55,053 bases of DNA. Source: an uncultured bacterium. Its GTDB lineage: Bacteria; Patescibacteriota; Minisyncoccia; Phycocordibacterales; PALSA-1337. A program made the translations under genes and the position numbers. Of the stretch, positions 1,133-46,278 are shown piece after piece. The stretch lies in assembly GCA_903846945.1 (NCBI GenBank), contig CAINCE010000042.1, positions 1-55,053 on the forward strand, given 5' to 3'. The notes under the pieces are model-generated. The model worked only from the letters and a program-made list of their open reading frames with translations. It did no database searches and was not told where the DNA came from. Numbering within the stretch: position 1 is the first letter of the stretch; every line of letters starts with the position of its first letter.

Positions 1133-2488
1133 TTACGCTATCACTCCCCCTCCCAAACACTCTTCACCGCGACTATCATAGACCACAAGTGACTGTCCCG
1201 ATGTCAGCGTATCTTGCGATTCTTCGAACTCCAACACTGTTTCAGTTATCCCCGTCCTTTTAATGCGTGCCTTTTGAAGTTCTTGACGATAACGACTACG
1301 GACTAGCAATGGGAATTTAATCGTTAATTTTACTTTACCCAACTCGTCACTATCTTTTACTGCATCTACAATTCCATTCGTCGACTTTATACTGGCCGGC
1401 ACAATTTCAAATATAGGTACCTCACCACGTATCCAATTCACATTCTGAATTCGAACTTCGCGAGTCGCACTCGGAAGCGATCTATCTTCATCCTTCCCTC
1501 TGTTCGATACAGTCAGAGTATTATGCTCCACATCTTTGTCTATCACAAAATACGGCGCGTCGTTAGGCGACTTCTTTTCGATAGTAAATCCATGTCTCTC
1601 ACCTATAGTGAAGAATAGTGCACCAGGATGCGAGCCAATGACTTCCCCACCCTCATTCAGGACATTCCCTTTTTCAGATTTAATATAATGTGAGAGAAAG
1701 TCTTTTACATCAACTTTTCCGATAAAGCAAAGTCCTTGACTATCTCTCTTGTCAGCATTCGGTAATTTGAATTTCTTCGCGAGCTTTCTCACCTCTGGTT
1801 TCTCTATCCCACCAACTGGAAATAGTATATGTGCGAGCTGAGACTGCTTCAATGTCCAGATGAAATATGATTGGTCTTTGTTGCGGTCGACTCCCGCAAA
1901 CATCGCGTATTCAGCATTTCCTGAGAATTTGTGTGCAGGGGACTTGCGGTCAACACCCGTGTACAATCCAAGTGAAGTATTTGGAAGATCTGCTGAGGGG
2001 ACTCTCGGAGCCACGAAGGTGGCGAGAGGGAATGCGCGCCTAGCAAGGCGCGACATGTGCCCCGAAGCGGAACTTTCAAATACTTCACTTACTATCCGCG
2101 CATAATGCCCCGTCGCAACATAGTCGGCCCCCTCCTTCATCGCCCAATCATAGAAAGCCCCGAACTTCACAGTCTTGTTGCACATCACATCAGGGTTAGG
2201 AGTTCGCCCTGCTCGATATTCAGCGATCATATAGTCTATAACACCTTGTTTGTATTCCCTTTCACAGTCCAATGTAACGAATGGGATTCCTAGATGTGCA
2301 GCAACCCTCATTGCATCCCTCCTCTCTTCTTGCCAATTGCATTCTATCCAATCTGGTTGCCAAACCTTGATAAATACACCCATAACATCGAAGCCTGCTT
2401 TTTGCAACAAGGCAGCAGAAACAGCACTATCTACCCCGCCAGATAGCCCGACGAACACTCGCTTCTTGGACGATTTGACTTTTACCAT
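1133..2488 (-). CDS. mnmA: tRNA 2-thiouridine(34) synthase MnmA carrying an internal insertion
   Basis: Motifs: PP-loop SGGVDSAV, ATGHYAR, NKDQSYF, DSQGLCFIG. Start taken at MVKVKSS (2488) because the upstream ATG at 2515 lies inside a heptamer repeat. Confidence 0.9.
   Translation of the reverse strand: MVKVKSSKKRVFVGLSGGVDSAVSAALLQKAGFDVMGVFIKVWQPDWIECNWQEERRDAMRVAAHLGIPFVTLDCEREYKQGVIDYMIAEYRAGRTPNPDVMCNKTVKFGAFYDWAMKEGADYVATGHYARIVSEVFESSASGHMSRLARRAFPLATFVAPRVPSADLPNTSLGLYTGVDRKSPAHKFSGNAEYAMFAGVDRNKDQSYFIWTLKQSQLAHILFPVGGIEKPEVRKLAKKFKLPNADKRDSQGLCFIGKVDVKDFLSHYIKSEKGNVLNEGGEVIGSHPGALFFTIGERHGFTIEKKSPNDAPYFVIDKDVEHNTLTVSNRGKDEDRSLPSATREVRIQNVNWIRGEVPIFEIVPASIKSTNGIVDAVKDSDELGKVKLTIKFPLLVRSRYRQELQKARIKRTGITETVLEFEESQDTLTSGQSLVVYDSRGEECLGGGVIA
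1971..2090. repeat. 120-bp GC-rich element with 17-bp terminal inverted repeats, in frame inside mnmA
   Basis: AGTGAAGTATTTGGAAG (1971-1987) is the reverse complement of CTTTCAAATACTTCACT (2074-2090) with 1 mismatch. The interior is visibly GC-richer and has a central hairpin, GCGCGCC-N6-GGCGCG. It is 40 codons with no stop in the mnmA frame. Confidence 0.7.
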
Positions 2489-11386: not shown

Positions 11387-13264
11387 ATGGAAATCCGCAA
11401 CATAGCTATCATCGCACACGTCGACCACGGTAAGACCACTCTTACCGACGCTATCATGACCCAATGTGGTCACGGTGACGAAGGTACCATGGACAGTAAT
11501 GCCCTCGAACAGGAGCGCGGTATCACCATATACGCAAAGAATACATCCGTTAACTACAAAGGTACCAAGATCAACATAGTCGACACCCCAGGCCACGCTG
11601 ACTTCGGTTCAGAAGTTGAGCGAGTGCTCCGTGCCATCGATGCAGTTCTACTCGTCGTCGACGCCCAGGAAGGTCCTATGCCGCAGACTCGCTTCGTCTT
11701 GAAGAAATCCCTTGAACTAGGTCTGAAGCCTATCGTCGTCATCAACAAGATCGACAAGCCAGCAGCCAATCCTGCTCGTGTGCACGACGAAGTCCTCGAG
11801 CTTTTCATGGAACTGGGTGCGCATGATTCTCAGATCGACTTCCCTACTATCTATGCTATCGGTCGCACTGGTGTCGCGAAGAAGTCCCTCACGGACGATT
11901 CGAAAGATCTCACACCACTATTAGATACTATTATTGAGTATGTTCCTGCGGCTAATGCAAAGGGTCTAGGGTTTAGGGTCGAGGGTATAGGAAGCACAAA
12001 GAAATCCGAACAAGGCCCTAAACCCTATACCCTAAACCCTATACCCTCGCTCACTGCGCAAGTATTTAACCTCGGCTATGACAACTTCCTCGGTCGTCTC
12101 GCAGTTTGCCGTATCTATTCTGGTACGATCAGAGATGGTCAAAATATATGGGTAAAGGATGTCAATGGCAAATCATTTACGGGTAAAGTGACGAAACTAT
12201 TTACATTTGAAGGAAAAAAGCGCCTCGAGACAGCGCAAGCTGAGGCGGGTGATATCGTCACCGTTGCTGGTGTTCCAGAAATATTTATTGGCGAAACCAT
12301 CACAGATAACGAGGCCACCGAGCCATTGCCAGCTATCAGTGTAGATGAACCAACCATCTCTCTACAATTCCTCGTAAACAATTCCCCATTTGCTGGAAAA
12401 GAGGGCACTTTCGTCACAGGTAGACAGATCCGCGAGAGACTCGAACGAGAACTAGAGACAAATGTCGGGCTCAAAGTTGATTTCTCCATGAATGAATTTT
12501 TTACCGTTTTTGGCCGAGGTGAACTTCACATCGGCATCTTGCTCGAGAATATGAGACGAGAAGGCTTTGAACTCCAAGTCTCTCAACCAAAGGTCATCAT
12601 CAAAGAAGAAAAAGATGCCGCGGGTAATATTACAAAAACTTTAGAGCCTTTCGAGGAAGTGATCATCGATACACCCCAAGAATTTTCTGGAACCATCATC
12701 GAAACTCTCGGCAAGCGCAAGGGTATCATGTCCAACATGACAACACATGGTAACCAAGTACGCATGGTTTTCGAGATACCAACTCGCGGACTACTAGGTT
12801 ATCGCAATGCATTTACCATCGATACGAAAGGTGAAGGCATCATGTCTAGTCGTGTCATCGGTTTTAGAGACCATGTCGGACTCATCGAGAAGCGCGAAAC
12901 AGGTTCTATGACATCGATGGTTTCTGGCAAGTCATTCGGTTTCTCATTATGGAACCTCCAGGACCGCGGCAGACTATTCATCGTTCCTGCTTCGGATATC
13001 TATGAAGGAATGGTCATCGGTGATACATCAAAGGGTGATGACCTAGAAGTAAACCCATGTAAAGGTAAGCAACTTTCTAACATGCGTTCATCTGGTAAAG
13101 ATGAAGCTCTCACATTGGTTCCACCATTTATCTTGTCGATCGAACGCGGTCTCGAACTCATGCGAGATGATGAGTACCTCGAGATTACTCCGAAAAATAT
13201 CAGACTCCGCAAGAAGTTTTTAACTGAGTTAGATAGAGCTAGGGCGAGGAGGAAGGATTTGTAA
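11387..13264 (+). CDS. typA: Translational GTPase TypA/BipA with an in-frame repeat insertion
   Basis: Motifs: [23 protein letters not shown]-terminal BipA-type region (LVPP...LEITP..IRLRK). Confidence 0.95.
11965..12048. repeat. Heptamer-arm hairpin (TAGGGTN / CCCTAWA) inside the typA reading frame
   Basis: The left arm TCTAGGGTTTAGGGTCGAGGGTATAGG pairs with the right arm CCCTAAACCCTATACCCTAAACCCTATACCCTC. The 24-nt loop is AAGCACAAAGAAATCCGAACAAGG. It is translated as [28 protein letters not shown]. Confidence 0.85.
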
Positions 13265-16250: not shown

Positions 16251-16339
16251 TAATGTTGATGTTTCAAATTCGGATGTTTTCGTTGAGCATTTCGTTGAGC
16301 ACCCTTTCATGTTTGTCATCTCTAATGTAAAATGTACCC

Positions 16340-17173: not shown

Positions 17174-20100
17174 TTATACCCTTCTCAATCCACACCACTC
17201 ACATTTTGGATCATCGCAGAACGACTTCACTATTTCCCCACTCCAAACTGCATCTACGAGTGATCGAATATTGTCTATGACAGACTTTTCGTCCTGTTCG
17301 GTTATCGGCAATGAAACAGTCGGGCATCTACCTTTCGCGTCTGGTGAGACGAATACTAGAGCAGGATGTATCCGCCTACCTTTCCACCTCTTATCATCAC
17401 CAACCAAGATCTTGTAAAAGACTAGCTGACGGAAATAATTACCATCAGAATTTTTCGTTTCACCCTTTATAGCATTTTCTGACATCGCCAATTTGGTTTT
17501 ATAATCAAACACAGTTACTTCATGCCCATTATCTAATATTGCATCCAGTTTCCCGTGAATAGGAATACTGATGATCTTTTCACTCGACTCCGTATCCCCA
17601 ATCGCCCATTTCATAAATCCTAAATCGTAAATCTTAAATCTCTGTATTGATTCCACCCAACTCTCAGTCAACACCGTACTTTTCTCGTCTTTCAGTGAGA
17701 AATGCGTAGAGAGGGCTCTAGCAACGGCGGGCATATCTTCAGCAAGTTCACTCTTTGCTAGCACCTTTTCTCTAGCCGACAAAAGTGATTTACTAAAATA
17801 CGCACTCACACTATCATCCATGATCTTTTGTATCTCTGATATATCTTCAACGACCTTGCTCGAACTCGCGACAGCCGTCCACACCCTAGACAGTGCCTCG
17901 TGCATCGCAGTACCCTTTTCCGCAGCAACAGAAGGTGCTTGAGGCATCTTCAGTATACTCTGATAGATGAACTGATTTGGGCATTTCAAGAAATGATTTA
18001 GCGAAGTCACAGAAAGACCTTTCTTGGTCAATGAATTCTTCGCAATGTCCAGTATCTTTTCATCAACGATCTTCCTTTGTTTTACCCTTTCGTCTACTAT
18101 TGATTCAGCACCATCAGATTTCGAGTCTCTTCTAAAAGACTTATTCTCACCAACGGAGATGGTCATCTGCCCACCTTCTACACCTTCGATGGTTGATGTT
18201 TCCTTCTCATACAACTTCTCCGCACCAAGGCGATCCAAAGTGACCTTCTTTATATGTTTTTCATCCAATTCATCGATAAATCGTAGAGGCGTCAAAGTCT
18301 TACCATCAGACTCTTCTAATGAAGTCATAACGACAGCGTGTTTCCTAGCGCGTGTCAGAGCAACATAGAATAGTCGTCGGACATCCTTAACCTCTGACTC
18401 TGTCGTCCTCTTTTTTGGCAATACGAACGAAGCCCCCTTCGGTCTCCCTATCCACGCTTCCTCAGTCGCATACGGTATGAAGACATAGTCGAACTCGAGA
18501 CCTTTACTACCATGTGCGGTCATAGCTTGGATAGGTAGATCAGGCGCTCCGACAGAAACCTTTACCGTGCGAGTTTCCGCAGATGTGCGATATGCAAGCA
18601 ATCTTGTAATGAGTTCCGCTGGATCAGAGATCCCTCCATCTCGAGCCAATGATTCTGCCAATGACACTATACCTCTCCAAACATTTATATAGATGGGGTC
18701 ACGATCGATAACCTTCGTATATCCAGACCTTTCTCCCGCATGCACGATGAATGCGATGGGACCATGTGACAATAGTGCCGCCCTGATACTAGAGAGTCCT
18801 GGTATCTTCGTATCAAATTCGTCGAATGTGCCACTGCGAAGCTTCTTCACTATCTCCGTCCCCGTAGCAAAGTCGAGTCCCCACATGCCGACAATGATGG
18901 TGTTAGCGACGAGGTCTACCCTTGTCGGATCAACGATGTACTGTAGTAAGTCGAAAAATATCTTACCAACAGGATGATTGAATATATCTATACTCCTCTC
19001 TGAAGAAATCTTTATGCCATGAAATTCACACAATCTGATAATGCGGTCTAGGTCACGATTTCGCCTTACTATTATTGCAACTGTTGGTCTATTATTCGCC
19101 GTCGATGGATTTGCATGACTGCCAATCGGGCGTTCACCATTGAGATGCATAGTATCACTACCCAACACATCATCACTCTCGTCTCCAGTCGCCATCAATC
19201 GTCTCAATCTTTCAATTAATTGAAATTCAATAGCCGTCGTATTCTCACCAGTAATGATCTCGATCGGTTCAGCTCTCTCCTTACTTCCAGATCTCAATCT
19301 GACACGCAGATCTCGATGTTCATCTTCCTCATAATTCTTTTCGATCATACTGAAACTGCCATCCAGAATACTCTGATGAGAACGATAGTTTTGGTCCAAC
19401 TTTATCACCTCCATATTTGGCCATTTCTTTTGAAGTTTAAGGAAATTCTCTACAGACGCACCTTGGAATCTGTAGATGGCTTGTTTCTCATCTCCGACGA
19501 TAAATACATTTGGTGTGTCGAAGAATTCTGCGATGATAGATAGAATGAAGTTCTGTGCATCATTGGTATCCTGATGTTCGTCGACATGGATGTACAGATA
19601 TCTCTCTTGGATCAGTCGCAGGAGCAACTCGTCTTCTCGCAAAGCCAATAGAAGTTCAATTATAAGGTCATTGAAATCCATTCTCTTCGCTTCGCGCTTA
19701 CCTGACTCGTATGCATCATAAATATCCGCAAAAAGTAGCGTCCTTTCGAGTTTTTCGATCTGCTCCTTTGCGTCAGCTTTCAACTGACCTTTGGTAGCGC
19801 CCCGAGTCGATATGGACTCCTCATCTGTTTGAATACGCTCGATTTCTGACCGTGCAAAAGCTCTAACCATCTCTGGTGTCATCGCCTCTCGTTTTGCCTC
19901 ATCTATACCACGGATAATCCCCGAAACATATACATCCGGTTTACCAGCTGGTCGCAAATCTACAAATTTCTGGTCTTCTATTATCTTTCTGATCAATGAT
20001 TCCTGCTCTATATCCGTCATCTGCTTCACCTCATTCAAATGTAAAAAGTGATCTTGATATTCAGATATTATTGACGATGCGAAACTGTGGAATGTGTGGA

Positions 20101-20365
20101 TGCGAACATCATGTGCTCGGTCACCGATGATTCCCTGCAATTTCGTTCTCATCGCTTTCACCCCAGCATCTGTATATGTGATAGCCAGAATGCCATTTGC
20201 AGGTGTATCCGTCAGTTTCAATATGTTCGCGATGCGCAGCGTCAGGATGGTCGTCTTGCCCGTCCCTGGACCAGCTATGACCATGACAGGACCTTCTATA
20301 GTGTCCACTGCCTTTTTCTGGGCGGAGTTAAGGGACGTATATAGTTGTTCGAATGAAACTTGCAT
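17174..20365 (-). CDS. UvrD/PcrA-family helicase fused to a C-terminal PD-(D/E)xK (Cas4/AddB-like, Cys-cluster) nuclease
   Basis: AGPGTGKTT Walker A, DEHQDTN, QNYRS, helicase motif VI VALTRA. C-terminus has KCPNQF...DYK...CDDPKCEWCG. Confidence 0.85.
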   Translation of the reverse strand: MQVSFEQLYTSLNSAQKKAVDTIEGPVMVIAGPGTGKTTILTLRIANILKLTDTPANGILAITYTDAGVKAMRTKLQGIIGDRAHDVRIHTFHSFASSIISEYQDHFLHLNEVKQMTDIEQESLIRKIIEDQKFVDLRPAGKPDVYVSGIIRGIDEAKREAMTPEMVRAFARSEIERIQTDEESISTRGATKGQLKADAKEQIEKLERTLLFADIYDAYESGKREAKRMDFNDLIIELLLALREDELLLRLIQERYLYIHVDEHQDTNDAQNFILSIIAEFFDTPNVFIVGDEKQAIYRFQGASVENFLKLQKKWPNMEVIKLDQNYRSHQSILDGSFSMIEKNYEEDEHRDLRVRLRSGSKERAEPIEIITGENTTAIEFQLIERLRRLMATGDESDDVLGSDTMHLNGERPIGSHANPSTANNRPTVAIIVRRNRDLDRIIRLCEFHGIKISSERSIDIFNHPVGKIFFDLLQYIVDPTRVDLVANTIIVGMWGLDFATGTEIVKKLRSGTFDEFDTKIPGLSSIRAALLSHGPIAFIVHAGERSGYTKVIDRDPIYINVWRGIVSLAESLARDGGISDPAELITRLLAYRTSAETRTVKVSVGAPDLPIQAMTAHGSKGLEFDYVFIPYATEEAWIGRPKGASFVLPKKRTTESEVKDVRRLFYVALTRARKHAVVMTSLEESDGKTLTPLRFIDELDEKHIKKVTLDRLGAEKLYEKETSTIEGVEGGQMTISVGENKSFRRDSKSDGAESIVDERVKQRKIVDEKILDIAKNSLTKKGLSVTSLNHFLKCPNQFIYQSILKMPQAPSVAAEKGTAMHEALSRVWTAVASSSKVVEDISEIQKIMDDSVSAYFSKSLLSAREKVLAKSELAEDMPAVARALSTHFSLKDEKSTVLTESWVESIQRFKIYDLGFMKWAIGDTESSEKIISIPIHGKLDAILDNGHEVTVFDYKTKLAMSENAIKGETKNSDGNYFRQLVFYKILVGDDKRWKGRRIHPALVFVSPDAKGRCPTVSLPITEQDEKSVIDNIRSLVDAVWSGEIVKSFCDDPKCEWCGLRRV
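17613..17640. repeat. Exact (NTAAATC)x4 heptamer array inside the helicase CDS
   Basis: ATAAATC CTAAATC GTAAATC TTAAATC, translated on the minus strand as RFKIYDLGF. Same motif family as 43574-43605. Confidence 0.8.
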
Positions 20366-21417: not shown

Positions 21418-22671
21418 TTAATAGTTCTTGAGCCTATTTATCTTGTCATGTTGGCGGATCTTTTCGTGTGCCTTTGCCTCGATCTGACGGATGCGTTCGC
21501 GAGTAACGCCAAATTCGCGACCTACTTCCTCGAGAGTGTGAGTGATACCATCATTCAAACCGTGGCGCATCTCTAGGATCTTGCGCTCTTTTTCCGAAAG
21601 GTCATTTAATATCATATTTACCTGATCACGCAAGATGCGTCGTGAAGACTCCTGATCTGGAGAAAGGATCTTGTCGTCAGCGATAAAGTCCTGGAGTGTA
21701 GACTTGTCATCACCATCATCACCGACTGGCTTTTCGAGAGAAACGACTTCTTGTTCGATCTTTTCTATCTGGTAGATCTTCTCGACATCCATACCCATCT
21801 CCATAGCGATCTCATCTGGCAATGGTTCACGACCTAGGTCATGAGAGAGTCTGCGAACAACTTGTTTGTACTTGGCGATGGTTTCCACCATGTGCACTGG
21901 CACGCGTATCGTTCTAGACTGATCAGCGAGTGCACGAGTTATCGCCTGACGGATCCACCATGTAGCATAAGTTGAAAACTTGTACCCTTTCGTCCAGTCG
22001 AACTTATCAACAGCTCTGAATAGGCCGAGGTTGCCTTCTTGGATGAGGTCGAGTAATGTGAGATCAGGAGAACGACCGACATATTTCTTGGCGATGGAAA
22101 CGACGAGACGGAGGTTGGCTTTTGCTAGCAAACCAACGGCCTCTTTGTCACCTGCCTGGATACGCTTGGCCAACTCCTTTTCCATACTGGCGTTGATGAG
22201 CGGATACTGACCGATCTCCTTTAGATACATCTGGATAGAGTCATATGCAGAATCAGGATTCCTAGAGAGATGCGAAACTGGCTTCTTGTGACTCAGATCC
22301 TCAACTTCGAGAAGTCCCCCACCTTCCAAAACATCCACATTTGCTGTAGTAAACTTTGTATACAGCTCATCTAGAAACAGGACGTCATTCTCGATCTGTG
22401 GAAATTCCTTCAATATCTCATCATAAGTGACGAATCCACGATCCTTGCCTTTTTGTATGAGTTTATTTGCTTTCGTCTCAAATTCACGAGCCTTGCTGAC
22501 AGCGGGCTTCTGGGTGGTATTTCTGGCAGAACCCTTCGATCCACTACTAGAACTCTTGGTAGTTTTTCTAGATGTTGTTTTTACTCGAAAAGACGCCCTT
22601 TTTGTTGGACGCTTCGAACTGTGGCGGGCTCTGAATCCGCCAGCTGGCGGAGTTTTTTTGTTTTTGCGCAT
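21418..22671 (-). CDS. rpoD: Primary RNA polymerase sigma factor (sigma-70)
   Basis: [13 protein letters not shown] (region 2.4), IRVPVHM (region 3), [23 protein letters not shown] (region 4.2). Basic low-complexity N-terminus. Confidence 0.95.
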
Positions 22672-22731: not shown

Positions 22732-24681
22732 TTACCCCCTAACTTTCTTCCCCACCTCCGCCTTCCTGATAGACAATGCGTGGCATTTCTTGGCGAGTTC
22801 TGCTAAGCGTGTCGCATCACCAGCCTTTTCTGCAACTCGGAGTTCCTGCATCGCATCTATCAATTCTTCATTGACGATATCTAGACCAAAATTAGATATC
22901 AGTTCCTTCATATGTATGTCCCATTTTGCCACATCGCTACCATACATCGCCTCAGCTTCGAATGACATATCACCTATCTGATCTGACACCCTCAGAGCCC
23001 GACCAGCGTATGACTCCCCCGCTGTCTTCTCTACCTCGGCTAGATATTCGGAATATTTCTTCTCATCCTGCTTCTTGATCAAATGTAGTAGGCCGAACAT
23101 ACGGCGTTCCACCAGATCATTATGTTTCTGCTTGTATGTATACGCATCAGACTGCACAGAAGTTGCAGATGCATGTAGATTGCTTCCTGCCGAGACACTA
23201 GAATTATTTGTTGAGCCTTTTGTAAGGCTGGCACTAGTAGCAGTCGGTGCCAAAGCTTCCGTTTCCATCTTTTTCCTAACTGCACGCAGATCATCCCATA
23301 TAGCACCTGCGTCAATATTCGCCTTGTCAGCGATCATCTTTACAAAATAGTCCTGATCTGTTCGACTATCGATACTCGCGAGCAATGGAAACACTCTCTC
23401 ACGCAGCATTCGTGGGATCTTGCGTGGGTCCTTTTCATCTCGGAGTACATTCATCAATTCAAATTCAACAACGGGTTTAGTGGTACGCAATATCTCTTTC
23501 CATATTTCTGGATTTTCCTTCACCAAGTCTGCTGGATCCTTGCCACCAACGATGTCTGCCATCTTCACATCCATACCGAGTGAGAGTGCTATGCCTGCTG
23601 CTCGAAATGCGGCTTTACGACCAGCGTTATCAGAGTCGAAAGCTATCACCACATTTGGAGATAGACGACGGATGAGTCCGAGATTGTTCACTGCACCCGC
23701 TTTATTTACCGACTCATCTGACAGAGCTGTACCTGATGCAGCCACGATATTCTTTACCCCTGCCTGATATGACATGATGAGATCCATCTGACCTTCGACC
23801 ATGATGGAATAATTCATCGTGCGAATAGAAGTCTTCGCCTTGTCCAGTCCGAACAATATAGATGACTTGTCATATAGCAATGTATCTGGGCTGTTTAGAT
23901 ACTTTGCTGACCTCTCGTCCTCCTTCAATATGCGACCCGTGAATGCGACTATACGCCCACTGGAGTCAGAGATAGGAAACATCACGCGACCTCGGAATCG
24001 GTCATAGTAGGATGCTGCGAGAGAATGTGGAGAAAGTTGACCAGAAATGGCTTTCGGACCGAGTGAAGACGAGGAAGAACGAGTTGCTTCGCCAGCAGGC
24101 GAAGACAGCGTACGTTTCGGGGCAACTTCCTCCACATTCCTATCTTTCTTCTTTATGAGCCCCGCCTTTTCAATCACTACCTGACCCCATCCCTTTTTCT
24201 TCAGGTATTCAAATAGATGTGTCCAACCCTCTGGCGCCCAACCTATGCGAAATGCTTCTTTCGTTTCTGGCTTTATGCCACGACCCTTCACATACTCTTG
24301 TGCATCCTTCGAACGGGCATATTGGTCTTCAAAGAATTTTGCCGCGTCCTCCATGATGCGGAACAATTGGTCCCTCTCGCTCTCGTCTTTCTGATTCACT
24401 ACCAGAGGCACGCCCGCTCTTTCAGCGAGCACTTTGAGTGCGCCCTTGAAATCGAGTCCTTCGAACTGCTCGACAAAGTTAAATATGTCCCCTTTCGAAT
24501 TACACCCAAAACAGTAATACCCGCCTCTCTCCGGTGATATGAAAAATGACGCCGACTTCTCGTTGTGAAATGGGCACTTGGCTTTGTATGACTTCCCTGC
24601 ACGGTCGATCTTCACATAGGAACCGATGAGGTCTTCTATGGGTATGCGAGCTTTGATCTCTTCGACAGTGGTTCGTGACAT
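22732..24681 (-). CDS. dnaG: DNA primase with an in-frame inserted element
   Basis: Zinc ribbon CPFHNEKSASF...YYCFGC. TOPRIM EGQMDLI and DSDNAGRKAA. Start at MSRTTVEEIK (24681) by similarity to primase N-termini. Confidence 0.92.
   Translation of the reverse strand: MSRTTVEEIKARIPIEDLIGSYVKIDRAGKSYKAKCPFHNEKSASFFISPERGGYYCFGCNSKGDIFNFVEQFEGLDFKGALKVLAERAGVPLVVNQKDESERDQLFRIMEDAAKFFEDQYARSKDAQEYVKGRGIKPETKEAFRIGWAPEGWTHLFEYLKKKGWGQVVIEKAGLIKKKDRNVEEVAPKRTLSSPAGEATRSSSSSLGPKAISGQLSPHSLAASYYDRFRGRVMFPISDSSGRIVAFTGRILKEDERSAKYLNSPDTLLYDKSSILFGLDKAKTSIRTMNYSIMVEGQMDLIMSYQAGVKNIVAASGTALSDESVNKAGAVNNLGLIRRLSPNVVIAFDSDNAGRKAAFRAAGIALSLGMDVKMADIVGGKDPADLVKENPEIWKEILRTTKPVVEFELMNVLRDEKDPRKIPRMLRERVFPLLASIDSRTDQDYFVKMIADKANIDAGAIWDDLRAVRKKMETEALAPTATSASLTKGSTNNSSVSAGSNLHASATSVQSDAYTYKQKHNDLVERRMFGLLHLIKKQDEKKYSEYLAEVEKTAGESYAGRALRVSDQIGDMSFEAEAMYGSDVAKWDIHMKELISNFGLDIVNEELIDAMQELRVAEKAGDATRLAELAKKCHALSIRKAEVGKKVRG
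24023..24139. repeat. 117-bp GC-rich element with 19-bp terminal inverted repeats, in frame inside dnaG
   Basis: GAATGTGGAGAAAGTTGACC (24023-24042) versus the reverse complement of GGCAACTTCCTCCACATTC (24121-24139). Central hairpin CTTCGCC-AGCA-GGCGAAG. It is 39 codons (NVEEVAPKRT...GQLSPHS). Confidence 0.75.
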
Positions 24682-24745: not shown

Positions 24746-24782
24746 TGCTTTCAAAAGCAACTGTCAAATATTCTTTGACAGT

Positions 24783-24801
24783 ATGTGCAAAATTTGCACA
24801 T
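24783..24801. promoter_or_regulatory. Operator-like palindrome ATGTGCA-N5-TGCACAT (copy 2)
   Basis: Identical half-sites and spacing. Its centre is 56 bp from the centre of copy 1. Confidence 0.45.
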
Positions 24802-24850
24802 ACTGAACTCTGAACTTGTTTCAAAATGGAACAAGTTGCCGTTTCTGACA

Positions 24851-24873
24851 GTTATCCGGAAATTCCGGATAAC
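24851..24873 (-). terminator. Perfect palindrome GTTATCCGGAA-A-TTCCGGATAAC just downstream of rhuM (terminator or protein-binding site)
   Basis: 11-bp arms, 10 nt after the rhuM stop, no T-tract. A near-identical palindrome sits inside rhuM at 25183-25207. Confidence 0.3.
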
Positions 24874-24882
24874 TGAGTATAA

Positions 24883-25473: not shown

Positions 25474-25757
25474 AAATTTGTAGTTAAAATATTAATTATT
25501 AATCCCATACAAAAAATACTGCCTGCAGGTGGCTAGTTTTCTTTACCTCACTAAGTCATCACAACCTCAGAGACGAACTGGTTGTGACTAATATAGGTGA
25601 ATTATAGCGTCAAACGAGGGTTTGTGGAAGCCTCGCTTGCACGAAACCCGAGTGAAGACGATATATGAGCGAAGCGAATATACTACGATTGAGATTTGTG
25701 GCAATAACTAGAGACTGTAAAATGTATTATGACCTGCCATCAATAGAATATCTAATA

Positions 25758-25789
25758 CCAGAAAACCCCGTAAACACGAGGCTTTCTGG
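25758..25789 (-). terminator. Candidate hairpin terminator downstream of rpoC
   Basis: CCAGAAA...TTTCTGG with inner GC pairs, about 100 nt past the rpoC stop. Confidence 0.3.
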
Positions 25790-25885
25790 TTATAACCAAT
25801 CGACGCTATCTGGTTACTTGATCTTGGATAATATTGTTTGACCAATTCTTGGGTTAATTAGACCAATTAGAAATTAGGTCAATTA

Positions 25886-28800
25886 TTACACCTCCCCCAA
25901 CGCGGCATCCCTCTTTGCTGACATAGCATCGATCATCGCTTTCTTCGGAGATCCTTCGAAGCCTGTACCAGCTGGAACGAGGCGTCCGATGATGACATTT
26001 TCCATTAGACCTGTGAGATCATCATCAGCACCACGGACGGCATTAGCGATAAGGACGCGTGTAGTATGCTGGAACGAAGCAGCTGACAAGAAACTCTTAC
26101 GGGTTAGAGAAGTCTCTGTGATACCCATCACCAGCTTCTCAACCTTCGCAGGCTCACCTCCAGCTTCCTTAGCAGCTGCATTCTCTTCGCCGAGCTGTAT
26201 ATCATCGACAACCATGCCATCCGTAAGGTTCGTATTACCACCTTCCAAGACGCGGCGTCGACTGAACATCTGCTTCACGATGAGCTCGATGTGCTTTCGT
26301 GACACAGTCTCACCCTGCAGCTCATAGATCTTTCCAACTTCGGTGATGACATAATCCTTTGCTTTCTCTTCACCACCGTATTCGAAGACCTCATCGATAT
26401 CGGCAGATCCGTCCGTTAAGAGCTGTCCTTTCGTGACTCGATCCCCAACTCTCACTGTAGTAGCACGACGATATGGGAATAGATACTCAACTTCAGAACC
26501 TTTCTTTGCGGAACCCTTGGCCTTGTCCTCAATATCTGGAATAACATAGATCGCCTTTTCCTTACCCATATCTTTGAATCCTGTAACGACTCCATCTACT
26601 GTAGCAACTACGGCTGGATTCTTAGGTCGTCGCTTCTCAAAGACTTCCTCGACGCGAGGCAAACCTTGTGTGATGTCACCACCTAGTCCTGCTGCACCTC
26701 CCTGGTGGAATGTACGCATCGTGAGCTGAGTTCCAGGTTCTCCGATAGCTTGGGCAGCGACCGTTCCTACAGCTTCACCTAGTGCGATGAGAGAGTTCTT
26801 TCCTAGGTCGAGTCCATAACACATCGAACATACTCCACGAACAGTTTTACATGATAGAGGAGATCGAACATGAACATCAGTTATACCAGCCTCCTCGACT
26901 TTCGAAGCATCGGCCTTGGAAAGCAGGTGTCCTTTTTTAAATAGAACTACATCGTCTGCTGTTTTAATGTCTTGAGCAATGATACGACCTCGGATGTTCT
27001 TTGATAGAGGGATATTCATACCAGAGGCTGTCTGCTTGTGAATGACGATGCTGTCCTTGGTTCCACAGTCTTCCTCTGAGACAACGACGTCCTGAGCAAC
27101 CACGAACAACTTACGAGTTAGATATCCAGCTTTGGCAGTGTTTAGAGCCGTATCTGTGAGACCTTTACGAGAACCGTGAGTAGTGATGAAGTATTCGATA
27201 GGAGTCAAACCTTCCTTCGCACAGGATAGAATAGGAAACTCGATCGTCTCTCCAGAAACTGATGAGATGAGACCTTTCATACCTGCCATCTGTGTGATCT
27301 GTGATAGGGATCCGCGAGCACCTGATGTGATCATGTCATAAACGGAACCCATCTTGTCGAGAGATGCGGGAATAGCTTTCTCAACCTCACCCTTGGCTTT
27401 CTGCCAAATCTCGATATGTTTCCTGATGCGCTCTTCCTCTGTGAGGAGTCCTTCGTCAAATTGCTTGGAAACGATATCAGCTGAACGCTTGCCTCGTGCA
27501 ACTATCTCGCCCTTGGCTGCTGGAACCATGATGTCATCGATACCCCATGTAGTTCCTGAAAATGTAGCATAGCTAAATCCAAATGTTTTTATCTTGTCCA
27601 AGATAGGTGCGACATTCACTGCGCCGTGCAATGTGATCATGTCATCGATGATAGCGGCGATACGCTTGCGCCCAATCTCTTCATTGATGAATGGATAGTC
27701 TTCTGGAAGCATGTTGTTAAACAATATACGACCAACAGTTGTCTCGAACATCTGCTCCTGGAGCGCAGCATATTTCATGGTCTTTGGTGCGATCACGCGG
27801 ACCAACTCACGAAGGTCGATATCATCAAAATTGTACGCCAACTCTGCAGCTTGTGGGGACTCGAAGTATTTTAGATCAGTCTTAAAGTCCTTAAAGTCTG
27901 AAAGTCCTCCTGCGCTTGACTTTCGACTTTCGTCCGCCGGCTGGCGGATCGACTTTTCTTTTATTTTCGTCACCCAGAAACAGCCAAGGACGATATCCAA
28001 CATCTTTGCGACGACTGTAGGATCATTGTTACCTGGTTTCAATATGTTCTTGTCAGCCGCCATGATCTCTCGAGCTTCCATCTGTGCTTCATCAGAGAGT
28101 GGGACATGGACTGCCATCTGGTCACCGTCAAAGTCAGCATTAAAGGCTGTACATACTAGTGGGTGAACATGGATAGCATTACCCTCGATCAAAACCGGTT
28201 TGAAAGCTTGGATACCGAGTCTGTGTAGAGTAGGTGCACGGTTTAACAATACATATTTGCCTTTGATGACTTCTTCCAATATCTCCCAAACTTCCTTGGC
28301 ATCATCATCGATAAATCTGTTTGCCCCGCGTATGTTATATGCCAACTCTTTCTTGAGTAGTCCTCCAATGACAAATGGACGGAATAGTTCTAGTGCCATA
28401 TGCTTTGGCAGACCACACTCATCTATCTTCAATTCTGGACCAACGACGATCACGGATCGACCTGAATAGTCGACGCGCTTTCCGAGGAGGTTCTGACGGA
28501 AGAGACCTCTCTTTGATTTCAAACTATCTGAGAGTGACTTGAGTGCTCTCTTCTGGGCGGCGATAGCAGCCGCACCAGCGGATGAACTGTGACGGATAGA
28601 GTTGTCTATGAGAGCGTCTACTGCCTCCTGCAATATTCTTTTTTCATTTCTCAAAATAACTTCTGGAGCATTGATCTCCTTTAGTTTCAATAGGCGGTTG
28701 TTGCGGTTGATGACACGACGATAGAGATCGTTCACATCTGATGTAGCATAACGACCACCATCCAATGCAACCATAGGTCGGATACCTGGTGGGATGACTG

Positions 28801-29638
28801 GGATACGGACCAAGAACATCCATTCTGGACGGACCTTGGCTTTGATCATCTGCTTCACGAGGGAAAGCCTCTTTGCGAGCTTGTCGCTGTCAGCGGAGCT
28901 AGCAACATCATATTCCTTTTCTAGCTCTGTCTGGAGTTTGGCGAGGTCGATCTTCTTCAATAGTTCATAGACGACTTCTGCACCGATACCAGCTTCAAAT
29001 AGTGAACCATATTTCACGGCGTATTTGTGATAAGTTGCTTCATCCATGACAAACCCAGCATTCAGGCTCTCGATCTCTCTTCGTGCATTCAAGACTAGTT
29101 CTTTCAATGCTTCCTTGGTCTTATCATCCTGTGCACTCTTCACCTTACTCTTGAATTCACTATCCAAATCCTTGAGGAATTGAGCTTTCTCGGCTTCATG
29201 AACTTTGGTGACGATGTAACCAGCGAAGTAGACTACCTTCTCGAGATCAGATGTCGTCATGCCTAGAATGAGTCCGATACGAGAAGGAACGCTGCGTAGG
29301 AACCAGATATGAGAAACTGGTGTAGCTAGCTCGATGTGACCCATGCGATCACGGCGAACTATGGAGCGAGTGATCTCCACTCCGCATTTCTCACAGACGA
29401 TACCTTTGTATCTGATACCGCGGTATTTTCCACAATAACATTCGAAGTCGCGGTCTGGTCCAAAGATGCGTTCGTCGAAGAGACCTGATTTCTCACTGCG
29501 CTGTGTGCGGTAGTTGATCGTCTCAGGCTTCGTGACTTCTCCATATGACCACTCGAGGATCTTGTCAGGAGATGCCAATGTGAGTCGCACTAGGTCGAAC
29601 TGTGTAGGATCATTTTGCTTTTTTATTGGTGTTTGCAT
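25886..29638 (-). CDS. rpoC: DNA-directed RNA polymerase subunit beta'
   Basis: NADFDGDQMAVH active site, zinc-binding CxC...CxxC near the N-terminus, conserved trigger-loop and bridge-helix regions. Confidence 0.98.
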   Translation of the reverse strand: MQTPIKKQNDPTQFDLVRLTLASPDKILEWSYGEVTKPETINYRTQRSEKSGLFDERIFGPDRDFECYCGKYRGIRYKGIVCEKCGVEITRSIVRRDRMGHIELATPVSHIWFLRSVPSRIGLILGMTTSDLEKVVYFAGYIVTKVHEAEKAQFLKDLDSEFKSKVKSAQDDKTKEALKELVLNARREIESLNAGFVMDEATYHKYAVKYGSLFEAGIGAEVVYELLKKIDLAKLQTELEKEYDVASSADSDKLAKRLSLVKQMIKAKVRPEWMFLVRIPVIPPGIRPMVALDGGRYATSDVNDLYRRVINRNNRLLKLKEINAPEVILRNEKRILQEAVDALIDNSIRHSSSAGAAAIAAQKRALKSLSDSLKSKRGLFRQNLLGKRVDYSGRSVIVVGPELKIDECGLPKHMALELFRPFVIGGLLKKELAYNIRGANRFIDDDAKEVWEILEEVIKGKYVLLNRAPTLHRLGIQAFKPVLIEGNAIHVHPLVCTAFNADFDGDQMAVHVPLSDEAQMEAREIMAADKNILKPGNNDPTVVAKMLDIVLGCFWVTKIKEKSIRQPADESRKSSAGGLSDFKDFKTDLKYFESPQAAELAYNFDDIDLRELVRVIAPKTMKYAALQEQMFETTVGRILFNNMLPEDYPFINEEIGRKRIAAIIDDMITLHGAVNVAPILDKIKTFGFSYATFSGTTWGIDDIMVPAAKGEIVARGKRSADIVSKQFDEGLLTEEERIRKHIEIWQKAKGEVEKAIPASLDKMGSVYDMITSGARGSLSQITQMAGMKGLISSVSGETIEFPILSCAKEGLTPIEYFITTHGSRKGLTDTALNTAKAGYLTRKLFVVAQDVVVSEEDCGTKDSIVIHKQTASGMNIPLSKNIRGRIIAQDIKTADDVVLFKKGHLLSKADASKVEEAGITDVHVRSPLSCKTVRGVCSMCYGLDLGKNSLIALGEAVGTVAAQAIGEPGTQLTMRTFHQGGAAGLGGDITQGLPRVEEVFEKRRPKNPAVVATVDGVVTGFKDMGKEKAIYVIPDIEDKAKGSAKKGSEVEYLFPYRRATTVRVGDRVTKGQLLTDGSADIDEVFEYGGEEKAKDYVITEVGKIYELQGETVSRKHIELIVKQMFSRRRVLEGGNTNLTDGMVVDDIQLGEENAAAKEAGGEPAKVEKLVMGITETSLTRKSFLSAASFQHTTRVLIANAVRGADDDLTGLMENVIIGRLVPAGTGFEGSPKKAMIDAMSAKRDAALGEV
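27875..27960. repeat. AAAGTC-family hairpin element inside the rpoC reading frame
   Basis: Left arm AGTCTTAAAGTCCTTAAAGTCTGAAAGTCC. Right arm GACTTTCGACTTTCGTC plus GATCGACTTTTC. Inner hairpin CCGCCGG-CTGGCGG. Translated as EKSIRQPADESRKSSAGGLSDFKDFKTDL. Confidence 0.75.
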
Positions 29639-29677: not shown

Positions 29678-30571
29678 TTAAATTGAGCATAAACTAAACT
29701 TAGACGAGCCAGACTTATTTCCATTTGCATCAATCAATGCAAAACTATTAAAAAGTATAGGGTTATCTATCACATATACCATGTCAATATTACAACTCTT
29801 AAGCACAACCCAGACTGACTTATTTGTTGTGCCGGAGCCAGCGTCACCTACAAAAAGGTAATCCCATCTGACAACACGTAGACCGCGCTCGTTAAATTCA
29901 GATTTCTTCGTTTTATCTGAGTCAACTCCACCGACAACTGGTCCATCCTTCAAAATAGAACTTACTTCACTCTGATCATTTGAGAACAGTACGGACGATC
30001 TTTTATTTGTGTTGTCATTAAAAACAATCGCGGTAAAATACGGTTTACTATCTAGCGTTGACATAGTCCAATCTCTAGAATAATCAACACTAAATCCATT
30101 ACCTGTATAATTCTTTAATGAAGTTTTAGACGTTGTAGAAGTCGGACATGCCCTAAATGCACAAGATGGAGCGACCCTACTCACAGTCGAACCGTCTGGA
30201 CACATTTTTGCATCCTTTGTGCAAGAAGCCGTATCATTAGTCGAACTTGCATTCTCTTCCCAAGGTCTCACACACTGCTGCTTTTGTTCACTCCACAAAT
30301 ATCCAGCAGATCCGATACATCCATGAGAGTCACGGTCGCCGCCAACTACGGCAGAGCTTGTAGACACTGGAATACTCCCATCACCGAATTGTCTCTCACA
30401 CTTTTGAAGGCCTTCACTCCAGATTTCGCCTGCTGACGGATAACATCCACGTGAATCTTTCCCTCCTATTTTCATTGGCTTCTGAAAGAAATACACGCCA
30501 CCCGCAATCGCCAAAACAACGATTGCAATCACCAGTGGAACGACATAACCTTTTTGAAAATTTGTTTTCAT
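29678..30571 (-). CDS. Membrane-anchored/exported Cys-rich repeat protein
   Basis: N-terminal TM helix. Duplicated module GG(K/D)DS(R/H)GC..SAG..WSE....C.R. Further Cys pairs (CTKDAKMCPDGS...CAFRACP). Confidence 0.6.
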   Translation of the reverse strand: MKTNFQKGYVVPLVIAIVVLAIAGGVYFFQKPMKIGGKDSRGCYPSAGEIWSEGLQKCERQFGDGSIPVSTSSAVVGGDRDSHGCIGSAGYLWSEQKQQCVRPWEENASSTNDTASCTKDAKMCPDGSTVSRVAPSCAFRACPTSTTSKTSLKNYTGNGFSVDYSRDWTMSTLDSKPYFTAIVFNDNTNKRSSVLFSNDQSEVSSILKDGPVVGGVDSDKTKKSEFNERGLRVVRWDYLFVGDAGSGTTNKSVWVVLKSCNIDMVYVIDNPILFNSFALIDANGNKSGSSKFSLCSI

Positions 30572-30592
30572 GTTGATAATTTGATTTGATAA

Positions 30593-30847
30593 TTAATATA
30601 GGTTGCTGTGACTGTCTATATCCAAGAAACGAACCCCATTCTCTCTAACTTCATACACTGCTCGCAAGTCGCCCGTCACATTGATACTCCGACATCCTAT
30701 GTATTTCCCATGAAGCCCGTGATTACTCAACTCCGGGGCAAATGAATCAATAATGAATGTCCGTAATCGTTCGTCAAACTTATTCTGAATCTTAATCTGT
30801 AATTTCTTGTACTTCTTTTTAAAGTCTTTATGGAGTTCGATCTGCAT
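30593..30847 (-). CDS. Type II toxin, RelE/YafQ-family mRNA interferase
   Basis: 84 aa. FKKKYKKL...HGLHGKYIGCRSINVTGDLRAVY...DIDSHSNLY resembles YafQ/RelE. It is 12 nt downstream of the antitoxin gene. Confidence 0.75.
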   Translation of the reverse strand: MQIELHKDFKKKYKKLQIKIQNKFDERLRTFIIDSFAPELSNHGLHGKYIGCRSINVTGDLRAVYEVRENGVRFLDIDSHSNLY

Positions 30848-30859
30848 ACGGTATAGATG

Positions 30860-31132
30860 TTAAGACCTTAATGATTTAATCACTTCCTCAGCCGTGTAAA
30901 AAGGACCGATAAAGTTCCTGTTTGCTCGCGAATCGGCCAATAATCTATCAAGAACTTTCATTGTTCGCTTATTAGGCATCGGGTGATCAGCAAAAGTCAC
31001 TTTCCTTTCGGAAATAAACTCCTTGATGTAACCATTCACAACTGCATTTAGAGATACACCCAAAATATGAGATAACTCTTGAGCTTGCTCTTTGACAGAT
31101 TTATTTATCTTGATACTTAACATCGTTTGCAT
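30860..31132 (-). CDS. Type II antitoxin, RelB/DinJ family
   Basis: 90 aa. The N-terminus, IKINKSVKEQAQELSHILGVSLNAVVNGYIKEFI, looks like a ribbon-helix-helix. Confidence 0.7.
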   Translation of the reverse strand: MQTMLSIKINKSVKEQAQELSHILGVSLNAVVNGYIKEFISERKVTFADHPMPNKRTMKVLDRLLADSRANRNFIGPFYTAEEVIKSLRS

Positions 31133-34461: not shown

Positions 34462-34585
34462 GAGATTTACGATTTCCATGCCTGACGGCAGGCAGGAGGA
34501 TTTAAGATTTAAGATTTATGAATCGTCGCAAGCTCACCGAGAAATTGCATCATTCGTAAATATTAAATCTATATTCGTAAATCTT
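34462..34585. repeat. GATTTAN-family composite hairpin in the rpoB 5' region
   Basis: GGATTTAAGATTTAAGATTTATGAATCG pairs imperfectly with CATTCGTAAATATTAAATCTATATTCGTAAATC. There is an outer GATTTACGATTT copy and a small GCCTG-ACGG-CAGGC hairpin. Confidence 0.7.
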
Positions 34586-37472: not shown

Positions 37473-37635
37473 AGAGCCCATCCACCATCTCGTGGTACCC
37501 TACCAGGAAAGCTTTATTTTTAGGCGAAAAACAAGCTGGAGTTCGAGCCATAATGAATTATGGCGAGAACGAAGCGCAGTTTTGTAGCCAAAAATAAGGC
37601 TTTATATGGTAGGGGGAAGATGGTGGATGGGCTCT
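37473..37635. repeat. 163-bp long-hairpin / MITE-like element with an 18-bp perfect terminal inverted repeat
   Basis: AGAGCCCATCCACCATCT (37473-37490) is the exact reverse complement of AGATGGTGGATGGGCTCT (37618-37635). Inner arms pair partially. The apex is GCCATAAT-GAA-TTATGGC. Confidence 0.8.
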
Positions 37636-37706
37636 TAAAGTCTTTAAAGTCCGTAAAGTCATGACTACGACTTTATAGACTTTCCAACTTTATGGACTTT
37701 ATGGAC
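37634..37706. repeat. AAAGTC-family hairpin abutting the radC stop codon
   Basis: CTTAAAGTCTTTAAAGTCCGTAAAGTC / GACTTTATAGACTTTCCAACTTTATGGACTTTATGGAC around an 8-nt centre. Confidence 0.8.
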
Positions 37707-38437
37707 TATTTTATAATACTTACAAATCTATCTTTCGTGATGATGACATGGTCGAGAACAGTGATGCCCAAGATCTTCCCGGCTTGGACCAACTGTTTCG
37801 ATATCTCGACGTCCTGGTCACTAGGAGTAACTTCGCCTGATGGATGGTTGTGTGCCAATACTACCGCGGCGGCGTTGCACTCGATACCAGCGCGAAATAC
37901 TTCTCTAGGATGGATGATATTCGAATTGACTGTACCTATGGATATGACCTCATCTCGGATAATCTTGCTGTGACTATTTAGAAACAGTCCGCGAAGGTGC
38001 TCCTTGGGCAGATTCCTCATATCCTGCAAATAGTTGTATACATCTTCGGCATTTCTGATGGTGGTAAAACCAGACTGATTCTTCTCACCATACCTCCTAG
38101 CTATCTCACCTACGGCCACGATGATGCAGGCCTTGCCTATAGGGATATCCAGGTCACTCGAGAGATGCTCGGGATCAGTCTCAGACAATATGGTCTTTTC
38201 CCCATACTCCTTCATGATCCTGTTGGACAGCTCGATAACGTCTTCCTTGACCGAACCAGTATTCAAGATAACCGCTATAAGCTCACGCATAGTGAGCGAC
38301 TGGGGTCCTTGAGACATGAGTTTTTGTCGAGGCTTTTCTTCACTCGGCAAATCATGGATCGTGATCAGATAATCACGACTACTGGAGCCGTCTAGAAACA
38401 GCGAGTTGTCCAATATTTTGTATGCACTTTTTTGCAT
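37706..38437 (-). CDS. radC: RadC-like JAB/MPN domain protein
   Basis: HNHPSGEVTPSDQD JAMM-type motif. Start set at MQKSAYKIL, because the longer ORF would overlap the pyk 3' end. Confidence 0.85.
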   Translation of the reverse strand: MQKSAYKILDNSLFLDGSSSRDYLITIHDLPSEEKPRQKLMSQGPQSLTMRELIAVILNTGSVKEDVIELSNRIMKEYGEKTILSETDPEHLSSDLDIPIGKACIIVAVGEIARRYGEKNQSGFTTIRNAEDVYNYLQDMRNLPKEHLRGLFLNSHSKIIRDEVISIGTVNSNIIHPREVFRAGIECNAAAVVLAHNHPSGEVTPSDQDVEISKQLVQAGKILGITVLDHVIITKDRFVSIIK

Positions 38438-42515: not shown

Positions 42516-42531
42516 GGGGGACAAATAGAAG

Positions 42532-43836: not shown

Positions 43837-43870
43837 TTGAAAGTCTGTAAAGTCTTAAAGTCCATAAAGC
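43837..43870. repeat. AAAGTC-family tandem array (single arm)
   Basis: Sequence is TTGAAAGTC TGTAAAGTC TTAAAGTC CATAAAGC. Confidence 0.8.
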
Positions 43871-46140: not shown

Positions 46141-46153
46141 GGTATTAGTTAAT

Positions 46154-46278
46154 AGTCTATAAAGTCTTTAAAGTCTTTAAAGTCATAAAGTCCATAAAGT
46201 TATTTGTTTTTCTCTACCTTTTCCGTTTTCGACTTTACGGACTTTATGGACTTCTCTGACTTTGGACTTTTAGACTTC
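46154..46278. repeat. AAAGTC-family hairpin whose second arm is the coding sequence of the L22 C-terminal tail
   Basis: The arm at 46154-46200 (TATAAAGTC TTTAAAGTC TTTAAAGTC ATAAAGTCC ATAAAGT) is complementary in motif to 46231-46278 (GACTTTAC GGACTTTAT GGACTTCT CTGACTTT GGACTTTT AGACTTC), which lies inside rplV. Confidence 0.8.

Follow-up and report, generated by a model that had tools for sequence, protein, structure and literature searches.

The stretch analysed here is a 55,053-nt contig from an uncultured bacterium (CAINCE010000042.1, assembly GCA_903846945.1), which we call the window, and the subject is a short repeat element located in frame inside its rpoC gene, which encodes the beta-prime subunit of RNA polymerase. 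The nearest beta-prime orthologs are labelled Candidatus Taylorbacteria, Paceibacterota or Patescibacteria in the database names, and the host is a Candidatus Taylorbacteria-like Patescibacterium of the Candidate Phyla Radiation (CPR). The element spans about 80 bases (27878-27958), lies in the rpoC frame and is translated free of stop codons. It falls within Pfam Rpb1 domain 3 (residues 531-703), in the pore-1 domain of beta-prime, and alignment to solved structures maps the insertion site directly after E. coli beta-prime residue 515. Beta-prime retains its catalytic NADFDGD motif, and the rpoB neighbourhood is ordinary. Five contigs encode the identical beta-prime protein, and over 4,620 nt the window DNA matches an independent Logan assembly at 100% identity, indicating that the element is not an assembly artefact.

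The sequence and position of the element inside rpoC agreed with an earlier reading of this DNA (the first-pass annotation). As listed in Table 1, it is made up of (N2-3)AAAGTC and its inverse, GACTTT, each present three times, together with a nested GC palindrome of 16 nt. An 11-nt loop separates arm 1 from arm 2, and the two arms pair in minimum-free-energy folds. On the plus strand, the third GACTTT is followed by the T-run TTTTCTTTTATTTT. The rpoC-frame peptide across the segment reads ...VTKIKEKSIRQPADESRKSSAGGLSDFKDFKTDLKYFESP..., in which arm 1 on the mRNA gives L-S-D-F-K-D-F-K-T, arm 2 gives E-S-R-K-S, and the GC palindrome is translated as I-R-Q-P-A-D. The repeat periods are 9, 8 and 7, so that successive units fall in different frames (L-S, D-F-K, D-F-K; E-S-R-K-S), and repetition at the peptide level is limited to DFKDFK. 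The units are read in all three frames, which marks the repeat as a feature of the DNA and not as a peptide repeat. Tandem Repeats Finder detected a periodicity of 7-9 nt at 27878-27932 as well as at some 20 other places in the window.

Folded as an mRNA-sense 96-mer, the element reached -29 kcal/mol (z -3.1, with 0/200 shuffles as good); the plus strand folded as DNA gave z -5.05, and the 102-nt segment coding for the loop gave z -4.2. Compared to a background of 235 100-nt windows taken from rpoC, rpoB, typA and a helicase gene (mean z -0.09, sd 1.09), the element is an outlier, though a moderate one, and its hairpin is weaker than those in typA, dnaG, mnmA and several spacers. It does not qualify as an intrinsic terminator: the sense strand has no U-tract and the element lies inside an open reading frame (ORF), and the site scores as terminator-like on the antisense (plus) strand only. 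A search of the whole window against Rfam 15 at the gathering score returned one tRNA match and none to the element.

The repeat unit in rpoC is the same as that of the ribosomal-protein spacers, as the first-pass annotation had recognized. AAAGTC occurs 73 times in the window, compared to 34.8 +/- 6.0 times in dinucleotide shuffles (maximum 49), and the excess stems from five clusters, one of which is the rpoC element. The family is found in rpoC, in three ribosomal-protein spacers (L22-S3, L16-L29 and L14-L24), in one other spacer, and in the tail of L22, where the inverse arm in the 3' end of rplV encodes KSKSPKSEKSIKSVKSK. An exact 11-mer, GTCTTAAAGTC, is common to the rpoC element and the spacers at 43852 and 44908. 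When the five loci were aligned, the mean column identity was 47% and the core alone was invariant; what they share is a 6-nt core with variable linkers of 1-3 nt, and they have no full-length consensus, ends, loop, length or arm number in common. The description of the family as hairpin elements overstates its uniformity, since at two of the five loci the array has one arm only. The peptides encoded by the AAAGTC elements are unrelated to each other. A DNA-uptake sequence was also considered and rejected, as AAAGTC outside the arrays occurs at about chance frequency.

Table 1. Coordinates of the rpoC element, its host gene and the other repeat features of the window
Feature	Position	Strand	Basis
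rpoC, RNA polymerase beta-prime (1250 aa), host of the element	25886..29638	minus	ORF and translation, five Rpb1 Pfam domains
Variable loop I559-L589, predicted disordered	27872..27964	minus	120-ortholog alignment, AlphaFold fragment model
Arm 1: AGTC + CTTAAAGTC, CTTAAAGTC, TGAAAGTC; spacings 9 and 8	27878..27906	plus	sequence
Arm 2: GACTTTC GACTTTC, inverse units, period 7	27918..27931	plus	sequence
Nested 16-nt GC palindrome TCCGCCGGCTGGCGGA	27933..27948	plus	sequence
Third inverse GACTTT, closes the outer stem	27951..27956	plus	sequence, fold
AAAGTC/GACTTT hairpin, spacer downstream of radC	37634..37707	.	same family
One-armed AAAGTC array filling the L14-L24 spacer	43840..43869	plus	
L16-L29 spacer array of AAAGTC units with one arm; its end lies 13 nt upstream of the L29 start codon	44905..44935	plus	
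AAAGTC array in the L22-S3 spacer and inverse arm in the rplV 3' end	46149..46277	.	
typA in-frame hairpin, tandem arms AGGGTNN x4 / NNACCCT x4	11961..12047	plus	
dnaG in-frame 123-nt hairpin with nested GC palindrome CTTCGCCAGCAGGCGAAG	24018..24140	minus	
rpoD GC palindrome TCCGCCAGCTGGCGGA, codons 7-12	22636..22651	minus	
mnmA-like ORF (1133-2515), in-frame 121-nt composite hairpin	1975..2095	minus	
GATTTA unit	43522-43605, 34499-34570, 17614-17641 (in frame in helicase gene)		
CCACTAG unit	1-116, 2507-2524, 8193-8293		
AGGGT unit	typA		
CTAATT unit	after rpoC stop codon		

The AAAGTC loci are part of a more general pattern. With an array defined as a 5-mer (or 6-mer) occurring at least three times at a spacing of 6-10, the window contains 22 arrays with a 5-mer core, against 1.4 +/- 1.1 in shuffles (~16-fold), and 12 with a 6-mer core, against 0.03 (several-hundred-fold). 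Thirteen of the 22 arrays are located in non-coding DNA, which makes up 14% of the window, and arrays, or sequence derived from them, are present in each of the eight spacers from S19 to L5. Terminators were rejected as an explanation of the spacer hairpins, because these are intra-operon and lack U-tracts, and canonical terminators do exist, one of them at 25757-25790.

The rpoC site was compared across the 120 best beta-prime orthologs (Parcubacteria). The loop between WVTK and FESP has 11 residues in 85 of these, typically IVxxAxGEGKx; in 30 sequences the stretch is longer than 13 residues, and lengths run continuously from 10 to 38. In the window beta-prime the WVTK-FESP stretch has 33 residues and the variable loop I559-L589 has 31, a net gain of about 22 codons over the usual loop. 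At exactly this site, each of the seven closest relatives (89-92% identical) has an insert of its own, differing in sequence and length, in line with the expectation of the first-pass annotation that the region after LGCFWVT tolerates lineage-specific inserts. AAAGTC repeats were present at the site in none of the six close relatives whose DNA was examined. The flanks are 79-87% (upstream) and 73-80% (downstream) identical to those of the relatives, and the inserts of the relatives align to the window insert with a global identity of 0.32-0.56, where a shuffled insert gives 0.46 +/- 0.03. Some of these inserts fold (z -3.95 in relative L003, -2.5 in L001 and -2.0 in L005), and the short ones are unfolded. 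Amino-acid conservation of the segment across distant lineages that lack the repeats, named in the first-pass annotation as the counter-evidence to look for, was not found.

The proposal that the rpoC and typA elements reflect a discrete unit of about 29 codons did not hold. Loop lengths are continuous not only in rpoC but also in typA, where the linker mostly has 9-11 residues among 120 orthologs and ranges from 9 to 63, and the hairpins in the window measure from ~67 to 123 nt. The common size of 86-87 nt is best read as a coincidence.

An AlphaFold model of beta-prime residues 420-780, based on a 41-sequence alignment, assigned residues 565-586 a predicted local distance difference test score (pLDDT) below 50 and left them without secondary structure; they are flanked by a helix (547-557) and a domain at pLDDT 93-96. 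The N-terminal part of this fragment was poorly modelled out of context, and only the local contrast in pLDDT was relied on. Together, these findings make it probable that the rpoC element is a DNA-level repeat that is tolerated in a predicted disordered loop and has no specific peptide role, and that it is not a conserved protein module. One could instead regard the site as an adaptive, fast-diversifying surface loop of beta-prime, which would, for example, allow escape from phage or host factors that bind RNA polymerase, with the repeats serving as raw material. The site does differ in every close relative, and similar hypervariable loops occur in typA, trmD, dnaG and the UvrD-like helicase. 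However, the same repeat units fill non-coding spacers and their reading frame shifts, disorder is predicted for the peptide, and unrelated housekeeping proteins behave alike, pointing to mutation supply and tolerance and not to targeted selection, so that we consider an adaptive loop very improbable.

Several other genes in the window contain comparable elements in frame. The typA hairpin (-45.2 kcal/mol, z -6.35) lies in the linker after the G domain and adds a net ~23-25 codons. At the same site, relative L127 (93% identical) has a degraded homologous hairpin (z -3.5), in which pairing was lost without compensating changes, the 87-nt hairpin of L128 (96% identical) is unrelated, that of L129 measures 132 nt (z -6.1) and encloses a nested CGCCCGCTGGCG, and L006 shows no fold; most typA variants among the relatives are hairpins too. 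In dnaG the hairpin reaches -47.9 kcal/mol (z -5.7), and the relatives have other inserts or none at the site. The composite hairpin of the mnmA-like ORF (dG -50, z -5.9) contains two nested GC stems and lies in an apparent insert after the ATGHYAR motif. The in-frame hairpins of typA, dnaG and mnmA indicate that the same process has operated elsewhere in this genome.

The GC palindrome of rpoC belongs to a second small family, with further copies at 22636-22651 (rpoD) and 24087-24104 (dnaG), and all three are intragenic; for the pattern CGCCNNNNGGCG, 3 occurrences compare with an expectation of 0.14. The rpoD and dnaG copies are read as (P/S)-P-A-G, in another frame than the rpoC copy. In rpoD the palindrome adds 4 codons (T-P-P-A), which none of the five relatives examined has. 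The UvrD/PD-(D/E)XK helicase gene (17174-20365) has three lineage-variable insert sites, and its (GATTTAN)x4 array, common to the window and L001, encodes KIYDLGF; a fold is lacking in two inserts that are specific to the window. The generalization that all lineage-specific inserts are hairpins was rejected, as three helicase inserts specific to the window have z values near 0 and the trmD inserts of relatives are direct arrays that form no hairpin.

Some further details of these genes were recorded. The typA insert of L128, the closest relative for this gene, contains GGAGGGACTTTCAGACT, a near-match to GGAGGACTTTCAGACT of the rpoC element that may be due to chance. On the antisense strand of the rpoD palindrome, GTTTTTTTGTTTTTG comes next, and the combination resembles a textbook terminator. 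In relative L002, positions 13764-17027 encode a 1087-aa DnaG with a faint LAGLIDADG match, possibly an intein.

The recurrence of stable folds raises the question whether the hairpins are kept for a function at the RNA or DNA level, such as ribosome pausing after the catalytic domain, mRNA stability or processing, or antisense termination. The rpoC fold is significant, and hairpins with unrelated sequences recur at the same typA and dnaG sites in relatives. The rpoC and rpoD palindromes are followed on the antisense strand by T-runs that derive from lysine codons, and are in this respect terminator-like, but the dnaG copy has no T-run and the genome already has canonical terminators. The arm-to-arm mismatches in the typA, GATTTA and 37634 hairpins all lie in linkers and none is of the wobble type, the homologous typA hairpin of L127 has decayed uncompensated, several relatives have short or foldless inserts at the rpoC site, and the 85 orthologs with the short loop have no insert. 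Such a function is therefore improbable. The multi-frame reading and the uncompensated loss of pairing in L127 argue against selection on the peptide and provide no positive sign of selection on RNA pairing.

Related genomes carry different arrays. In L211, whose S3 protein is 97% identical, the operon spacers again consist of arrays and hairpins, here with ATTGAA/TTCAAT as the dominant unit, and some spacer sequences have changed places between spacers when L211 is compared to the window. An ATTGAA array is also found in frame in trmD of L002. In L003-L006, arrays are much rarer, with none in 23 kb each. Each genome therefore has its own proliferating units. Growth in place is visible in trmD, where a single GAAAGTCG in the window corresponds to (AGTCGAA)x3 in L001. 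The CTAATT-site array after the rpoC stop codon is orthologous in the window and L001, and is thus inherited and evolving in place.

The unit was also searched for more widely. Using the pattern AAAGTCN{2,3}AAAGTCN{2,3}AAAGTC on a genome collection of 596 Gb, tandem-arm AAAGTC hairpins were found in several phyla among the matches listed; with ~70 chance hits estimated for a collection of this size, the scan is unable to show that AAAGTC is special. A control on viral contigs with a 4-unit pattern gave at least 120 matches, almost all of them strict 9-nt coding repeats, and inverse arms in 2/120, so that bare pattern matches alone do not define the element. Among AAAGTC arrays with an inverse partner (the window and loci L007-L126), the order 5'-(AAAGTC)n-loop-(GACTTT)n-3' was observed 27 times at 14 loci from several phyla, and the opposite order at one locus, L072. 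As this order reads alike on both strands, the asymmetry is real. No mobile genes were seen beside the large CPR arrays at L070 and L055, where the neighbours are housekeeping genes, e.g. smpB, infC and trmD.

These distributions bear on the possibility of an actively mobile, non-autonomous element, comparable to a transposable element of the miniature inverted-repeat type (MITE), a REPIN or a Rickettsia palindromic element (RPE), inserted by a trans-acting enzyme that recognizes the hairpin or the unit. Mobility would fit the presence of one unit at five loci, the 11-mer that is identical in rpoC and two spacers, the GC palindrome in three genes and two frames, with the rpoD copy a clean insertion of 4 codons absent in the relatives examined, the different dominant units of closely related genomes, and the tandem-arm hairpins with the same arm order in several phyla; RPEs moreover provide a precedent for in-frame insertion (PMC10969869). 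Nevertheless, we think it unlikely. The copies have no common length, ends, loop or full-length consensus, and two of the five are one-armed. There is no target-site duplication, the flanking AAAATA repeats being native Lys-Ile and Lys-Tyr codons, and no transposase or RAYT-like gene was found among the window ORFs scanned. Also, the array after the rpoC stop codon was inherited, and trmD shows expansion in place. With variable length and arm number, one-armed copies and no target-site duplications, the elements fall outside what defines a MITE.

On the reading favoured here, the rpoC element is a member of the 7-9-nt simple-sequence-repeat arrays of this genome, which are often paired with an inverse copy into a tandem-arm hairpin, in rpoC combined with the small GC palindrome. 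Such arrays fill operon spacers and gene ends and would occasionally become fixed within a gene, namely when the added length is a multiple of three, contains no stop codon and falls in a permissive disordered surface loop. The units may first multiply by replication slippage. An inverse arm could then form when the nascent repeat strand folds back and copies itself, which would explain the constant order of the two arms. Finally, existing arrays may be copied to seed new loci, in which case each genome would come to have its own dominant unit.

Several observations weigh against this account. Slippage alone leaves unexplained why 6-nt cores are conserved and linkers variable, why arm mismatches are confined to the linkers, why one unit occurs at five separate loci, and why the arm order is polar (14 loci versus 1). 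No allele differing solely in unit number and no empty site was found, and the one extra copy is identical, so slippage was not directly seen; a metagenome scan via the ADFDGDQM peptide returned, among the matches listed, rpoC relatives that were all at most 56% identical, and gave no allele information. Third-codon positions between relatives are only ~60% identical, at which divergence one old, diverged insert is indistinguishable from repeated new insertions, although the near-perfect AAAGTC units must be young. A retained hairpin function (mRNA pausing or stability, antisense termination) also counts on this side, with a small probability. The unexplained spread of the unit and the core and linker pattern keep an enzyme-mediated mobile element alive as an explanation. 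They are likewise features of a wider idea, which we consider doubtful, that these sequences represent an undescribed, self-propagating class of "tandem-arm foldback" repeats, in which a 5-6-nt core with 1-3 variable linker bases is arrayed and then inverted in a fixed order, by a specific generating mechanism and with unit-specific spread. Reiterative fold-back copying during repair, or a hairpin-specific enzyme, may be the mechanism of such a class.

Among described systems, the closest are heptamer-type long simple sequence repeats (units of 5-11 nt; e.g. the cyanobacterial short tandemly repeated repetitive sequences). The window arrays resemble them in having units of 7-9 nt in tandem, in which a conserved core is combined with positions that vary, a mostly intergenic location, length and sequence variation between close relatives, arrays upstream of start codons, inverted pairs and rare in-frame copies, and their head-to-tail units exceed chance, so that they can be assigned to this kind. 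According to the account given in two later papers, bacteria have an over-representation of heptamer repeats, with slippage as the proposed origin (Mrazek et al. 2007, via PMC4679880 and PMC4692102). In the (GGGANTN)n arrays of Xanthomonas, some positions are conserved and others variable, inverted pairs occur occasionally, and close relatives differ strongly (PMC4692102). The TAACTGA arrays of Beggiatoaceae, which are common to Cyanobacteria and Bacteroidetes as well, lie directly upstream of start codons lacking a Shine-Dalgarno sequence, also in ribosomal-protein operons, and one of them lies within the reading frame of a beta-prime-like ORF, in a surface loop that is variable (PMC4679880). 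What differs here is the CPR host, the several unit families per genome, the fixed-order inverse pairing into long hairpins, and an in-frame copy, accompanied by a GC palindrome, in the pore-1 domain of a catalytically complete beta-prime.

RPEs are inserted in frame in many unrelated housekeeping genes and are translated where the protein fold tolerates them (PMC10969869), and the in-frame palindromic repeat DNA in rpoC, typA, dnaG and mnmA is similar in this respect. However, RPEs are ~100-150 bp long and have a family consensus and a conserved peptide, whereas the elements described here share a 6-nt unit only, vary in length and arms, and have no conserved peptide; lacking a consensus and a conserved peptide, they are not RPEs. 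PARCEL repeats were rejected as a match because their unit is a coding one of 25 residues (PMC2996958). Repetitive extragenic palindromes (REPs) and the REPIN-RAYT system also comprise short GC-rich palindromes, hairpin doublets and genome-specific many-copy families, but REPs are extragenic and REPIN arms are not tandem, whereas the 16-nt palindrome is intragenic in each of its three copies; no RAYT gene was present among the window ORFs scanned. Lineage-specific insertions in beta-prime such as SI3 are folded domains that are conserved within large lineages. The rpoC insert likewise adds surface sequence that differs between lineages, but it has only ~22 residues, is predicted to be disordered (pLDDT <50) and is different in each of the 89-92% identical relatives, which sets it apart from a folded, lineage-conserved insertion domain. 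Eukaryotic foldback elements are kilobase-scale and associated with a transposase; the likeness is that their inverted arms are built of short tandem repeats, and no homology is implied. A literature search for such in-frame repeats in CPR bacteria found no description. New here are the CPR host, the fixed-polarity tandem-arm hairpin, its combination with a GC palindrome, and the number of essential genes hit within 55 kb.

Around rpoC, the rpoB-rpoC junction (29678-31132) contains a relBE toxin-antitoxin pair as well as an uncharacterized ORF of 297 aa. Relatives have 23S_rRNA_IVP-family genes, ORFs of 352 aa or 512 aa, or nothing at this junction, and these differences in cargo mark it as a variable insertion site. 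In L001, an RVT_1 reverse-transcriptase gene (15708-16595) is located downstream of rpoC. As to the ribosomal-protein operon, the genes between 42940 and 47015 have no Shine-Dalgarno sequence, and their leaders are G-poor arrays ending in ...ACC before the ATG, as is the case in L211. An ORF encoding an NYN-domain/peptidase S51 fusion (47269-48516) is found upstream of S19, in the place expected for rplB (L2), and in L211 a histidine-kinase gene and a 144-aa ORF are located between L2 and S19. The contig itself opens inside a perfect (AGCCACT)x16.6 array, whose unit is found again at two further places (Table 1). Intergenic arrays of 22-bp repeats sharing TGATAAAAAAAG (8343-8416 and 10703-10758) are of a different kind from the 7-9-mers. 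Further very stable intergenic hairpins are present at 24766-24875, 37501-37610, 4951-5060 and 42526-42635, reaching e.g. -46 kcal/mol in 110 nt at 36-39% GC.

Core information-processing proteins are usually regarded as frozen, yet young, strain-specific inserts derived from spacer-type repeat DNA are present in beta-prime, sigma-70, primase, TypA and MnmA of this CPR lineage, and repeat DNA thus lengthens core proteins in a bacterium with a tiny genome. This extends to the Candidate Phyla Radiation the idea, developed for Rickettsia, that palindromic repeats are raw material for protein evolution, and ties it to heptamer repeats. In practice, the inserts alter both length and alignment of genes that serve as markers for CPR phylogeny and binning (rpoC, rpoB-neighbourhood genes and ribosomal proteins), and the long arrays probably break assemblies; the window itself begins within an array of 16 copies. 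Both the fixed arm order and the pattern of conserved cores and variable linkers provide testable clues to how the repeats form. If a foldback class exists, it would share one unit, YRTAAAGTC, across Patescibacteria, Bacteroidota, Acidobacteriota and Nitrospirota, and in CPR bacteria such repeats would be a steady source of hypervariable inserts in beta-prime, sigma-70, DnaG, TypA, MnmA and L22.

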